The notes under the pieces were generated by a model that ran no database searches, was not told the origin of the DNA, and saw only the letters and a list, made by a program, of their open reading frames with translations. From Actinomycetota bacterium (GTDB lineage Bacteria; Actinomycetota; AC-67): a stretch of 64,000 nucleotides of DNA. Below are positions 43,197 through 54,802 of the stretch, one piece after another. A program made the translations under genes and the position numbers. The stretch is taken from positions 788 through 64,787 of the forward strand of contig DASWJS010000021.1 in NCBI GenBank assembly GCA_036397035.1, given 5' to 3'. Each line of letters starts with the position of its first letter. Within the stretch, counting starts at the first letter, position 1.

Positions 43197-43985
43197 ATGA
43201 GCGATCCCGACGCCGTTCCCGCGCGCTCGCTGTCCTTCGACGCGGCCGAGCCGCTGCCGCTGACCGGCGAGCGCACCGCGCCCGGCGTTCCCGAAGAGAA
43301 CTACTGGTTCCAGCGTCACGTCGCCGGGTACCTGTTCGCGGCGGATCGCGTCGCCGGGACGCGCGTGCTCGACGCGGGGTGCGGCGAGGGCTACGGGACC
43401 GAGCTGCTGGCGGCGCGCGCGACGGCCGTCCATGCCCTGGACCTGGAGTGGCCCGTGGTCGCGCGCGCCCGGGCCCGCTACCCGCGGACGGGCTTCGGCG
43501 CCGGGAACCTCGTTGCCATGCCGTTCGCCGCGGGAACCTTCGACGCCGTCGTCTCGCTCCAGGTCATCGAGCACCTCCACACGCCGCAGGAGTTCCTCGC
43601 CGAGTGCAAACGCGTGCTGCGGCCGGGCGGGCTCATCCTCGTCTCGACGCCGAACCGCCTCACCTTCTCGCCCGAGGGCGTGCGCAACCCGTTCCACACC
43701 TTCGAGTTCGCGCCGGAGGAGCTGCACGCGACGATGGCTCGTCACTTCACCGGCATCGAGCTGCTCGGCACGTTCCACGGCCCGTCGATCCGCTCGCTCG
43801 AGCGGTTCATGCGCGTGTCGTTCCCCGAGCGGCTCATCCAGACGCCCGCCTACGAGTGGCCCGACTGGCTCCAGTCGCGCGTCGCGCGCGTCCGGCCGGG
43901 CGACTTCCGCGTCCGCGCGCGCGCGTTGGAGCGGAGCCTGGACCTCGTCGCCGTCGCGCGCGCGCCCTCGTCCCCGCGCGCATAG
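43197..43985 (+). CDS. SAM-dependent methyltransferase (class I)
   Basis: Motif I VLDAGCGEGYG, motif post-I, and VLRPGGLILVSTPN. First gene of the MGLP-like block. Confidence 0.7.
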   Translation: MSDPDAVPARSLSFDAAEPLPLTGERTAPGVPEENYWFQRHVAGYLFAADRVAGTRVLDAGCGEGYGTELLAARATAVHALDLEWPVVARARARYPRTGFGAGNLVAMPFAAGTFDAVVSLQVIEHLHTPQEFLAECKRVLRPGGLILVSTPNRLTFSPEGVRNPFHTFEFAPEELHATMARHFTGIELLGTFHGPSIRSLERFMRVSFPERLIQTPAYEWPDWLQSRVARVRPGDFRVRARALERSLDLVAVARAPSSPRA

Positions 43986-43989
43986 CGCG

Positions 43990-45522
43990 ATGGGCCTGTT
44001 CTGCCTCGTCCTGCACACGCACCTGCCCTACGTCCGTCGCAACGGCGTCTGGCCCAGCGGCGAGGACTTCTTCCATCAGGCCGCCAGCGAGTGCTACCTG
44101 CCGCTGCTCGGCACGCTCGAGCGCCTCGACGAGATGGGGGTTCGCGACGGGCTCACGATCGGGCTGTCCCCGATGGTCGCCCACCAGATGCAAGACGAGC
44201 ACATGCTCGCCGAGCTTGGATGGTTCCTCGGACGCCTCGAGCTGCGCGCGCTCCGCCAAGTCGCCAACTACGACGGCGTCTTCACGCCCGAGTTCAAGGA
44301 TCTCGCCGCGTTTTACGCGCGCTTCGGGCGCGAGCAAGCCGCCCGCCTCGACGCGTTGCCGGGTGGCGGGATCGCGACTGCCTTCGCCTCGTTCGAGCGC
44401 GCGGGCGTGATCGAGATCCTCGGCGGACCGGCCACGCACCCCTACCTTCCGCGCGTCGGCGAGCCGCTCCTGGCCGAGGCGCAGGTCCGGATCGGCGCGG
44501 TCGAGCACGAGCGTCTGATCGGGCGCGCGCCCGCGGGGATGTGGCTCCCGGAGTGCGCGTACCGCCCGGACGCCGGGATCGAGCGCATGCTGGCGAACGC
44601 CGGAGTCGGACACGTCGTCATCGACGGCCCGACCATGCTTCGCAGCGCCGGTCCAGGCTCCACGTTCGCGCCGCGCCGCGTCGGCGCGGACGGCCCGGTC
44701 GCCTTCGCCCGGAACCTCGACGTGACCTACCGCGTGTGGTCGCCGACGGGCGGGTACCCGACCGGGCGCTGGTACCGCGACTTCTTCCACTACGACGTCG
44801 AGGCCGGGTTCAAAGACTGGCGCGTGACCTCGATCCGCAAGCCGCTCGACGGGAAGCGGCCCTACGAACCCGCGCGCGCGGTCGAAGCCGCGCGACGCGA
44901 CGCCGAGGACTTCGCCGCGCTGGTCGCGACGACCCTCGCCGAGCACGAACGCCAAACCGGCGTGGAGGGCGCGATCGTCGCCGCCTACGACACCGAGCTG
45001 TTCGGCCACTGGTGGTTCGAGGGGCCTGTGTTCCTGGAGCGGCTGTTCGAGGTGCTGCGCGACGCCTCGGGCGTGCGCGCGTGCTCGCTGTCGCGCGCGC
45101 TCGAGCTGCTGCCCGAGCCGGAGCCGGTCGACCTGCGCGAGGGGTCGTGGGGCTTCCGCAAGGACGACCGGTCCTGGGTGGCGGAGGAGACCGAGCACAT
45201 GTGGTCCGCGCTCGCCGAGACCGAGACCGAGACCGTCCGCCTGCTCGACAAGCATGCGGACGCGACCGGCGCGCGGGCCGAGGCGCTCGCGCAGCTCGTG
45301 CGGGAGGCGATGCTGCTGCAGTCGAGCGACTGGCCGTTCATGGTCCTTCGCGGGCGCAACCCCGACTACGCGCGCGAGCGGTTCGCCTCGCACCGCGCGC
45401 GCTGGAACCACATGGCCGAGCTTCTGCGCAGCCGCATCCCCGACGACCTCGTCGCGCGCGAGGCGGCGGCCGTTCACGAGATCGACAACATCCTGCCGGC
45501 CCTGTCGCCGGCGGCGCTCTAA
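43990..45522 (+). CDS. Glycoside hydrolase family 57 (alpha-1,4-glucan branching enzyme-like)
   Basis: GH57 N-terminal block MGLFCLVLHTHLPYVR...GEDFFHQAASECYLPLL, with conserved catalytic-region blocks (WLPECAY, ELFGHWWFEG). Confidence 0.8.
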   Translation: MGLFCLVLHTHLPYVRRNGVWPSGEDFFHQAASECYLPLLGTLERLDEMGVRDGLTIGLSPMVAHQMQDEHMLAELGWFLGRLELRALRQVANYDGVFTPEFKDLAAFYARFGREQAARLDALPGGGIATAFASFERAGVIEILGGPATHPYLPRVGEPLLAEAQVRIGAVEHERLIGRAPAGMWLPECAYRPDAGIERMLANAGVGHVVIDGPTMLRSAGPGSTFAPRRVGADGPVAFARNLDVTYRVWSPTGGYPTGRWYRDFFHYDVEAGFKDWRVTSIRKPLDGKRPYEPARAVEAARRDAEDFAALVATTLAEHERQTGVEGAIVAAYDTELFGHWWFEGPVFLERLFEVLRDASGVRACSLSRALELLPEPEPVDLREGSWGFRKDDRSWVAEETEHMWSALAETETETVRLLDKHADATGARAEALAQLVREAMLLQSSDWPFMVLRGRNPDYARERFASHRARWNHMAELLRSRIPDDLVAREAAAVHEIDNILPALSPAAL

Positions 45523-53182: not shown

Positions 53183-53977
53183 ATGTGCCGGACCCTCTCC
53201 ACGCGCGCTCGGAACGCCGCCATGCTCCTCGCGGCAGCGGTTTCCGTGCTCGCGATCCCGGCGGCCGGCGAGGCCGCGCTCCCCAAGCGGATCGCATCGA
53301 GCTTCTTCTCCAAGAAGATCACGATCGACGACGACACGAAATGGCGGCTCGCGTGCAACGGCCCGTTCTCGTCCAACACGCAGATCCACGTGCTGGTCGT
53401 CAGCGTCGAGCCGGCAGACGGATCGGACCCGTTCACGTTCCAGTTCACCAGCACGTTCGTCAACAGCACCTGGACGATCGTCAAGGTCGGGCCCTACACC
53501 CACGAAGAGCACACCGGCCCGTCATCCACCTGGGAGGCCGGCGGCGGGCCGTCGATGAGCGGCAGGTCGCAGCCGGCGGGGACGCTGCGGGTCGCCGGCG
53601 CGTCGTGGGGAAACACCCTCCGCACCTGCGTCGTGACGCTCGACGGCGTCAAGAAGGAGTTGAAGAAGCGCCCCCGCTCGAACGCCCGCTACTGGCTGCC
53701 GACCGACGGGGAGGGCGCAGCCAGTTCCTCGAACGTCGAGAGCACCTGGGCGATCCGGTTCGAAGCCGACTTCGACGGCTTCCTCGTCGCGGCGCACGGA
53801 GGCAGCGCCGAGCAGGGAGTTGCGATCGCGGTCCCGCCGGAAGGAGACCCGGTCGTCGGCCGGCCTTTCTTCTTGGTCGCGCGGCCGACGTCCGGAACGT
53901 GGCGCTTCACGTCGGCGGGGTCCGGGCCGGCGCTGTTCGGCTTCGACCTCATGACGGCGCTCGTCCTGCCGCGCTGA
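53183..53977 (+). CDS. Secreted hypothetical protein
   Basis: Signal peptide (MLLAAAVSVLAIPAAGEA). No family recognised. Confidence 0.5.
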   Translation: MCRTLSTRARNAAMLLAAAVSVLAIPAAGEAALPKRIASSFFSKKITIDDDTKWRLACNGPFSSNTQIHVLVVSVEPADGSDPFTFQFTSTFVNSTWTIVKVGPYTHEEHTGPSSTWEAGGGPSMSGRSQPAGTLRVAGASWGNTLRTCVVTLDGVKKELKKRPRSNARYWLPTDGEGAASSSNVESTWAIRFEADFDGFLVAAHGGSAEQGVAIAVPPEGDPVVGRPFFLVARPTSGTWRFTSAGSGPALFGFDLMTALVLPR

Positions 53978-54016
53978 GGTCCCGCCCGGCACGCCGCCCG
54001 CGTCCGGCGCCCTACG

Positions 54017-54802
54017 TCAGCGCCCGGTGAACGTGGCCTTGCCGGGGCCGTGCTCGATGAACGAGCGCATGCCGGCCTTCTGGTCCTCGGTGGCGAACAG
54101 GTTCACGAAGACCTCGCGCTCGAACGCCAGCGCGTCGCCCATGTCCATCTCCAGCCCGCGCTGGATCGCCATCTTGGCCGCGCGCAGCGCCACGAGGGGA
54201 CCGCGCGCGTACGCGGCCGCCATCTCTACGGCGGTCTTGTAGACGTCCTCCGCCGGAACGACCTTGTCCACCAGCCCGATCTGGAGCGCTTCCACGCACC
54301 CGACGAACCGGCCCGAATAGATGATGTCCTTCGCGCGCGCCGGACCCACCAGGCGCGGCAGTCGTTGCGTCCCCCCGGCGCCCGGGATGATGCCCAGCAG
54401 GATCTCGGGCTGGCCGACCTGGGCGTTGTCGGCCATCACGCGGAAGTCGCAGCACATCATCAGCTCGCACCCGCCGCCGAGCGCGAAGCCGTTCACCGCG
54501 GCGATCGTGACCTTGGGGATCTCCTCGACCTGGGTGAAGACGCCCTGCAGCCCGGCCATCCGGTTCATCATCTCGGCGGGCGTGCGCTCGGCCATCTCCT
54601 TGATGTCGGCCCCGGCCGCGAACACCTTGTCGCCCCCGGTCACGACGATCGCCTTCACCGTGTCGTTGAACGTCGCCTCGCGGGCGGCGTCGGCAAGCCC
54701 CTCGACGACCTCGGCGTTGATCGCGTTCATCTTCGGCCGGTCAAGCCGGATGGTCCCGACGCCCGTCCCCTCGTCGATCTCGAACCGTACGACGTCACTC
54801 AT
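54017..54802 (-). CDS. echA: Enoyl-CoA hydratase (crotonase family)
   Basis: Crotonase fold, oxyanion-hole region: AAVNGFALGGGCELMMCCDFRVMADNAQVGQPEILLGIIPGAGGTQRL. Confidence 0.9.
   Translation of the reverse strand: MSDVVRFEIDEGTGVGTIRLDRPKMNAINAEVVEGLADAAREATFNDTVKAIVVTGGDKVFAAGADIKEMAERTPAEMMNRMAGLQGVFTQVEEIPKVTIAAVNGFALGGGCELMMCCDFRVMADNAQVGQPEILLGIIPGAGGTQRLPRLVGPARAKDIIYSGRFVGCVEALQIGLVDKVVPAEDVYKTAVEMAAAYARGPLVALRAAKMAIQRGLEMDMGDALAFEREVFVNLFATEDQKAGMRSFIEHGPGKATFTGR

Follow-up and report, generated by a model that had tools for sequence, protein, structure and literature searches.

A probable counterpart of the mycobacterial methylglucose lipopolysaccharide gene cluster in an Actinomycetota bacterium of lineage AC-67

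A stretch of 64,000 nucleotides from an Actinomycetota bacterium of GTDB lineage AC-67 (contig DASWJS010000021.1; the whole 64-kb stretch is called the window below) was analysed for the gene block located at 43197-54802. This region is probably the organism's copy of an ancestral actinobacterial block whose mycobacterial version is the methylglucose lipopolysaccharide (MGLP) cluster. The conserved core consists of six genes in two convergent strings: a methyltransferase (MT1), a GH57 branching-enzyme-like gene and a GT4 glucosyltransferase gene on the plus strand, and echA, a second methyltransferase (MT2) and a hexapeptide-repeat acyltransferase gene, read in this order on the other strand. 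The gene map of the window, which has a G+C content of about 71%, is based on a frame analysis of G+C at third codon positions (GC3) that agreed with the genes called independently on an ENA contig of identical sequence (L001). Both place each gene of the block where a preliminary description of this DNA had put it, and the gene content and order given there for 43197-54802 were confirmed throughout.

PDB sequence searches with GH57, GT4 and MT1 gave no M. tuberculosis structure among the matches, and the mycobacterial reference was therefore taken from the genome scan: a locus of the complete Mycolicibacterium litorale genome (strain F4; L056). Upstream in L056 the order is mnmA, iscS, acyltransferase, GNAT, etfA and etfB, followed by methyltransferase, GH57 and GT4; the opposite strand carries hexapeptide transferase, PQQ_2, DUF3298, a THUMP-like methyltransferase, Methyltransf_11, echA and NUDIX genes. 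We take this layout to be that of M. tuberculosis H37Rv, and the Rv numbers used here for genes by position are likewise presumed, from gene order, gene sizes and published annotations rather than from M. tuberculosis sequence.

All six core proteins matched their L056 counterparts in both search directions, with identities of 46% for MT1, 39% over the full length for GH57, 43% for GT4, 47% for the hexapeptide acyltransferase (against the gene at the Rv3034c position), 45% for MT2 (253 bits, against L056 16969-18039) and 38-40% for echA. Judged from these sequence matches, the block corresponds to the region Rv3030-Rv3039c of mycobacteria, with unrelated genes interrupting it. The likeness to that region put forward in the preliminary description held for order, strand and two-way matches (38-47%) and failed for MT2, which is not Rv3037c-like. 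For the trio of MT1, GH57 and GT4, the best matches were MGLP-cluster enzymes and not enzymes of glycogen or trehalose metabolism, in line with the MGLP interpretation proposed there.

Compared with the M. tuberculosis MGLP cluster (Rv3030-Rv3037c as defined by Stadthagen 2007 in the summaries of PMC2674218 and PMC4555173, extended here to Rv3039c), the window has the same order and orientation, with methyltransferase, GH57 and GT4 convergent with the string that runs from the acyltransferase to the methyltransferase and echA, and the same upstream chromosomal neighbours (gatCAB, ligA, mnmA, iscS). The two differ in several respects. The genes at the Rv3033, Rv3035 (PQQ_2), Rv3036c (DUF3298), Rv3037c and Rv3040c (NUDIX) positions are without a counterpart in the window; an amidase and a PaaK-like gene take the place of the upstream etfAB, GNAT and acyltransferase genes of mycobacteria; and five unrelated modules are inserted in the window. 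The second methyltransferase of the window is of the Rv3038c type, which the published M. tuberculosis cluster does not count.

MT1 (43197-43985, plus strand) carries a Methyltransf_11 domain (E 1.5e-23) and is a predicted S-adenosylmethionine-dependent methyltransferase, the counterpart of the gene at the Rv3030 position, with a putative 6-O-methylation activity. Its stop codon lies 4 nt before the start codon of GH57 (43990-45522, plus strand), in which the Pfam domains Glyco_hydro_57 and BE_C were found. Homology to the glycogen branching enzymes from Thermus and Thermococcus extends along the entire GH57 protein (PDB 1ufa, 3n8t and 5wu7; E 1e-67 to 1e-85, with 1e-85 for 5wu7 and 3n8t). The catalytic regions are conserved, and alignment A1 shows no variation at E188, within WLPEC, or at D334, within YDTELFGHWW. 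When aligned to 1ufa, 3n8t and 5wu7, the window protein has gaps of about 12-15 residues following ECAYRP and more gaps around the loop; it lacks both the β5-β6 region and the flexible active-site loop of the Thermus and Thermococcus enzymes. The flexible loop and the β5-β6 strands are necessary for real branching activity, and the M. tuberculosis GH57 protein, which likewise lacks both, is inactive on amylose (PMC9291813). Because both elements are missing, the window protein was rejected as a true GH57 glycogen branching enzyme (EC 2.4.1.18); like its M. tuberculosis counterpart, it falls in the majority class of glycogen-branching-enzyme (GBE)-like proteins, "GBE-like, function unknown".

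The GT4 protein (48250-49536, plus strand; Glycos_transf_1, E 5.6e-42; Glyco_transf_4, E 4.2e-36) scored 225-278 bits, at 39-43% identity, against syntenic mycobacterial GT4 proteins. Identities were also taken from other mycobacterial loci because the GT4 gene at the Rv3032 position of M. litorale F4 (L056, ~11640-12890) is split by a frameshift in the deposited genome, which represents either a sequencing error or a pseudogene. Scores were far lower against the GlgM structure 6tvp (80.5 bits) and the GT4 chain 3c48 (112 bits), the latter of which we take to be C. glutamicum MshA. Two curated families were tried and rejected: GlgM/Corynebacterium-type GlgA (TIGR02149, glgA_Coryne; 156.7 bits against an NCBIfam cutoff of 302.4) and MshA (167 bits against an NCBIfam cutoff of 462). 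Across the loci and structures compared, GT4 is the likely counterpart of the enzyme at the Rv3032 position, its similarity to the GT4 of the cluster far exceeding that to GlgM or MshA.

On the minus strand, the hexapeptide acyltransferase (49533-50225; Hexapep, E 1.3e-11) is convergent with GT4 and is 46-58% identical across the actinobacterial loci. The echA gene (54017-54802), of the crotonase family (ECH_1, E 4.4e-70), encodes a protein 73-80% identical to those of two close relatives (L083 and L084), 52-62% identical in other actinobacterial loci and 36-44% in loci of the mycobacterial type. By these identities, the mycobacterial copy at the echA17 position is the divergent one.

MT2 (52201-53124, minus strand; Methyltransf_11, E 7.9e-26) had been described as Rv3037c-like. 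Its match in L056, at 45% identity and 253 bits, is instead the Methyltransf_11 gene directly beside echA (16969-18039), that is, the gene at the Rv3038c position next to echA17, and no match was obtained to the THUMP-like gene at the Rv3037c position (L056 15782-17098). The putative methyltransferases of the published cluster are Rv3030 and Rv3037c (PMC2674218). MT2 is kept in 35 loci, including those of Nanopelagicales and Frankiaceae, among the matches listed. In the actinobacterial loci that were compared, the second methyltransferase to be conserved is of the Rv3038c-position type and not of the Rv3037c type. In M. tuberculosis, rv3038c was reported in the oleic-acid resistome, annotated as of unknown function and predicted to be essential (PMC13279779, 2026). 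This would fit a role in a fatty-acyl-binding polysaccharide and is a lead rather than a result. The name "Rv3038C" in one paper is evidently a typographical error for etfA.

The distribution of the block was assessed with an alignment of GH57 relatives, which was scanned against a single genome for each species and yielded 80 loci among the matches listed, the best match being 43% identical. Co-occurrence was counted for loci with enough flanking sequence, at a distance of at most 10 kb from GH57, and the counts given here refer to the matches listed. Among 63 actinobacterial loci, all but one (62) have MT1 upstream of GH57, directly adjacent and on the same strand in 56 of them; MT1 was found at none of 13 GH57 loci from outside the Actinomycetota (Chloroflexota, Melainabacteria and similar). 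GT4 was found near GH57 in 50 of 55 actinobacterial loci, the acyltransferase in 34 of 49, MT2 in 26 of 49 and echA in 22 of 49. The window's own clade was not among the scan matches listed, and five relatives (L082-L086; GH57 44-75% identical) were fetched individually.

When mycobacterial proteins were used as queries, the genes at the Rv3035, Rv3036c, Rv3037c and Rv3040c positions proved essentially confined to Mycobacterium in the loci examined. Those at the Rv3030, Rv3031, Rv3032, Rv3034c, Rv3038c and Rv3039c positions recur in Nanopelagicales, Frankiaceae, Geodermatophilaceae, Pseudonocardiaceae, a metagenome-assembled genome (MAG) of the Micrococcales and the clade of the window. In the Nanopelagicales locus L011 all six core genes are contiguous, and this compact block, seen also in Frankiaceae (L010) and an uncultured Actinomycetota member (L016), has the same genes in the same order as the window. 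Identities between the proteins of these compact loci and those of the window reach at most 56% for GT4, 62% for echA and 58% for the acyltransferase. The compact blocks are uninterrupted or contain other insertions, whereas a DUF3152 gene and the PaaK-like neighbour are added in the window clade. The core block persists even where parts of it are inverted (L046 and L079), and it stays together while its flanks differ, with etfAB in mycobacteria and most loci and amidase and PaaK-like genes in the window clade. Six genes in the same order and orientation at dozens of loci from different actinobacterial orders represent a synteny far beyond chance. The block is an old actinobacterial unit, and its presence in the window is expected rather than exceptional. 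The preliminary description had pointed to the occurrence outside mycobacteria as being of biochemical interest; this occurrence is not peculiar to the present organism, as the core is widespread in Actinomycetota. Enzymes of the Rv3032 type had already been noted in Rhodococcus, Gordonia/Corynebacterium and other genera in published statements.

Orthology and synteny are observed directly, and from mycobacterial genetics we infer the enzyme activities and the product of the block. GT4 would extend a short α-(1->4)-glucan, and GH57, instead of branching glycogen, would introduce an α-(1->6) link into a small primer. MT1 and MT2 would O-methylate glucose units and the hexapeptide transferase would add short acyl groups, giving as predicted product a cytoplasmic methylated and acylated glucan oligosaccharide that binds fatty acyl chains. 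The non-core genes would have accumulated as neighbours at the junctions between transcription units. Published mycobacterial genetics implicates Rv3032 and Rv3030 in the elongation and 6-O-methylation of MGLP (PMC4555173, PMC2674218). A parallel outside mycobacteria is GlgAb of Rhodococcus jostii (bioRxiv 10.1101/2023.02.13.525685), an Rv3032 homologue whose gene lies beside that of a putative branching enzyme of the GH57 type, as in the window, and which was proposed to act on immature MGLP-like acceptors. GlgAb is 71% identical to Rv3032, whereas the window GT4, a predicted enzyme, is about 40-43% identical to the mycobacterial orthologues.

Several points weigh against the assignment of the block to an MGLP pathway. 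At 38-47% identity to the mycobacterial proteins, the window enzymes may use other substrates and make another product. A tblastn search of the 64-kb window with the THUMP-like methyltransferase from the Rv3037c position gave no match. Genes for GpgS, GpgP and OctT, which are associated with the glucosylglycerate primer, were not found among the open reading frames (ORFs) of the 64-kb window, and no glycosyltransferase besides GT4 was found among the window ORFs scanned. In M. tuberculosis the primer genes are unlinked to the cluster (Rv1208, Rv2419c and Rv2418c; PMC4555173, PMC2674218). In addition, Rv3031 is without a demonstrated activity (PMC9291813), Rv3032 also contributes to glycogen and capsular glucan (PMC2674218), and published statements name mycobacteria and a few Nocardia as the only sources from which MGLP has been isolated. 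A methylmannose form of such polymers was isolated from Streptomyces griseus.

In an alternative reading, GT4 and GH57 make an ordinary unmethylated storage α-glucan by an alternative glycogen pathway, the methyltransferases, acyltransferase and echA being mere neighbours in a slowly rearranging region. Rv3032 partly compensates for Rv1212c in the synthesis of glycogen and capsular glucan (PMC2674218), and the Rhodococcus homologue of Rv3032 elongates glycogen in vitro (bioRxiv 10.1101/2023.02.13.525685). Moreover, the whole region from serA to iscS is syntenic with mycobacteria, from which it follows that gene order is generally conservative here. The same Rhodococcus enzyme is, however, a poor glycogen synthase, and the GH57 protein is of the type without the branching elements, of which the M. 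tuberculosis representative is inactive on amylose. Further points against this reading are the same-strand adjacency of MT1 and GH57, seen in 56/63 actinobacterial loci and 0/13 elsewhere, and the persistence of the block where flanks are replaced or parts inverted (L046, L079 and the relatives of the window). A storage α-glucan is for these reasons considered unlikely.

The five relatives make it possible to distinguish clade-conserved neighbours from insertions specific to the window. All of L082-L086 share ligA, mnmA, iscS and the amidase, then the PaaK-like gene and then the core. The amidase-like cell-wall protein with Rv3811_N, Amidase_2 and FG-GAP domains (38584-41532, minus strand) is kept in L082-L086. 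The PaaK-like adenylate-forming enzyme (41648-43156, minus strand) shows a weak AMP-binding match in Pfam and a match to the phenylacetate-CoA ligase 4r1l in PDB (E 6e-12); its gene runs divergently from MT1 in the window as well as in 5/5 relatives, with 56-66% identity in L082-L084. At the site of these two genes (38584-43156), mycobacteria and most other actinobacterial loci examined have etfAB and many also GNAT and acyltransferase genes; no etfAB genes were found in the window.

Between GH57 and GT4 lies a DUF3152 gene (47451-48173, minus strand; 97 bits, E 1.6e-27), divergent from GT4 and encoding a protein with an N-terminal membrane anchor. Its translation contains HEVGHLLGHGH, which fits the metzincin motif HExxHxxGxxH. 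In the three closest relatives (L082, L083 and L084; 54-57% identity) DUF3152 occupies this same place, and it was not found in L085, L086 or any GTDB locus. By these comparisons DUF3152 is a clade-conserved neighbour and not a one-off insertion. The preliminary description had listed it as an inserted metzincin-like protease: the zinc-binding motif is indeed present, and the retention in three relatives argues against a single insertion.

The 213-amino-acid ORF that follows GH57 (45519-46160, minus strand) matched nothing in Pfam, NCBIfam or PDB sequence searches. Homologues number 4113, and the best 120 of these 4113 are at least 71% identical, carry no Pfam domain, are all annotated as hypothetical and come from Actinomycetota MAGs. 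H114, D116, H176, H180 and R186 are invariant in the family (an H-x-D...H...R pattern). The AlphaFold2 (AF2) model has a mean predicted local distance difference test (pLDDT) score of 73, and a Foldseek search with it returned AspH, PHD2 and FtmOx1 as weak matches at E ~1e-4 and template modelling (TM) scores of 0.4-0.48. The protein may thus resemble 2-oxoglutarate (2OG)/Fe(II) oxygenases in its predicted fold, the model being of moderate confidence. The earlier label "cupin-like" was a fair description, and the earlier view of the gene as an unrelated neighbour is borne out. Homologues are located inside or beside the block in L082 and L083 (77-82% identity) and in unrelated contexts in L087, L088 and L089; a functional tie of the oxygenase-like gene to the block was ruled out by these contexts in three other genomes.

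The remaining interrupting genes are confined to the window. A DUF3137-like membrane protein gene (46206-46883, plus strand; 25.6 bits, just below the cutoff of 26.1) overlaps by 4 nt with a LemA family gene (46880-47458, plus strand; 176 bits, E 4e-52), and the former has no homologue in the 88 other loci, the latter none in the relatives. The description of this pair as an insertion proved correct, as it is found in the window only among the loci compared. A 251-amino-acid ORF with a signal-peptide-like N-terminus (53222-53977, plus strand) gave no Pfam or PADLOC match and had no homologue in any fetched locus; it was considered as a counterpart of Rv3036c and rejected, having no similarity to the DUF3298 protein. 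A stretch of lower G+C content (50228-52149, minus strand; 0.659 against ~0.71) with three ORFs splits the string of echA, MT2 and acyltransferase, the latter two of which are adjacent in L082-L084. It encodes a 56-amino-acid ORF, an NTP_transf_8-like nucleotidyltransferase of 234 amino acids (50391-51095, minus strand), whose homologues carry PF12281, and a helix-turn-helix (HTH) protein of the MarR_2 type (51079-52149, minus strand). Relative to its homologues P0242 and P0243 the nucleotidyltransferase has an in-frame internal deletion of 38 residues and may be decaying. The borders of the insert were also searched for repeats, direct and inverted, and nothing convincing was found. The pair had been labelled "AbiE-like", a label that has to be withdrawn: no AbiE model matched in PADLOC or Pfam, even at permissive E-values, and the resemblance of this HTH protein and NTP_transf_8 relative to AbiE lies in the two-gene outline only. 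The DUF3137-like/LemA genes, the HTH/nucleotidyltransferase pair and the secreted ORF are insertions specific to the window.

Different cargo is found in the relatives, at the GH57/GT4 and GT4/acyltransferase junctions: a 1973-residue TIG-like protein and a PIN/PhdYeFM pair in L086 (11528-18475), Rieske/Usp, cupredoxin and DUF2231 genes in L085 (12950-18758) and two DUF5122 β-propeller genes in L082 (13577-18672). The places where one transcription unit meets the next are therefore recurrent insertion sites.

The clade-conserved neighbours could also indicate that the clade makes a chemically distinct, tailored glycan, in the modification or turnover of which the PaaK-like protein, DUF3152 and, in some members, the 2OG-oxygenase-like protein take part. 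This agrees with the PaaK-like gene being divergent from MT1 in the window and all five relatives, with DUF3152 lying between GH57 and GT4 in the window and three relatives, and with the oxygenase-like gene occurring within the block or next to it in the window as in L082 and L083 (77-82%). Yet three other genomes have homologues of the oxygenase-like gene away from the block, neither L085 nor L086 has DUF3152, and the membrane anchor and metzincin motif of DUF3152 suggest an extracytoplasmic protease, a misfit for a cytoplasmic glycan pathway. Since the junctions are demonstrably promiscuous insertion sites, such a tailored glycan is quite unlikely. That the core acts on a non-glucan substrate, by methylation or acylation of a small glycoside or cell-envelope precursor, with the MGLP link being specific to mycobacteria, is very improbable: the activities of Rv3030, Rv3031, Rv3034c and Rv3038c were never shown in vitro and the core occurs in Nanopelagicales and other lineages without reported MGLP, but genetics tie Rv3032 and Rv3030 to MGLP, and GH57 and GT4/Glyco_transf_5-like domains belong to α-glucan-active families.

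The wider gene order of the window, for which the preliminary description had given serA, ilvBNC, gatCAB, ligA and iscS-mnmA as in M. tuberculosis, was confirmed by Pfam and PDB matches and the L001 gene calls. At the window start, which truncates the gene, the N-terminal part of serA (D-3-phosphoglycerate dehydrogenase) is located at 1-909 on the minus strand (PDB 3ddn and 1ygy, E 8e-89). It is followed on the same strand by ilvC, ilvN and ilvB (8748-12046; KARI_N/KARI_C, ACT_AHAS_ss/ALS_ss_C and TPP_enzyme_N/M/C, respectively), by gatB, gatA and gatC (30767-33986; gatB with PDB 3h0l_B at E 3e-140, gatA with Amidase at E 8e-155, gatC with GatC) and by ligA, a small ORF, mnmA and iscS (34012-38519; L001 gene calls and Pfam, with tRNA_Me_trans domains in mnmA). 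The iscS product is 49% identical to that of M. litorale, and ilvD was also confirmed in the window.

Further observations concern regions outside the block. Between the ilv and gat genes, a Bat-like operon (18966-25345, plus strand) encodes a MoxR AAA+ ATPase, DUF58, BatA/VWA and a large VWA/GATase1-like protein. A methyltransferase with an Rv2258c-like winged-HTH N-terminal domain (28665-29753, minus strand) adjoins a DUF3352 protein gene and ilvD. The stretch at 2001-4000, between an Aminotran_5 gene and a 508-amino-acid ORF without Pfam match, has a lower G+C content (0.63) and no confidently coding frame; no tRNA or Rfam match was found in it, and tRNA and Rfam scans of the entire window were empty. 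A non-homologous end-joining pair lies a short way downstream of the block, at 56460-59820, where Ku, on the minus strand, overlaps divergently with a full-length LigD that has primase-polymerase, phosphoesterase and ligase domains.

Taken alone, the window changes little, as it adds one more example of an actinobacterial block already known, here interrupted by unrelated genes. More useful is the outline of the conserved unit: across the sampled Actinomycetota orders it is a core of six genes, with the Rv3038c-type methyltransferase and echA among them but Rv3035, Rv3036c and Rv3037c left out. Tentatively, this core (the counterparts of Rv3030, Rv3031, Rv3032, Rv3034c, Rv3038c and echA17) could represent an ancestral Actinomycetota pathway for a methylated, acylated α-glucan, retained in Nanopelagicales and deep uncultured lineages and also in mycobacteria and Nocardia, from which polymers of this sort are known. 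If so, methylated-glucan polymers would have a general role in the handling of fatty acyl chains, and the conserved second methyltransferase of the pathway would be of the Rv3038c rather than the Rv3037c type. The comparison of the core gives a testable candidate for a missing MGLP methyltransferase, and the cultured carriers Amycolatopsis, Lentzea, Prauserella and Frankia are places to look for methylated glucans.

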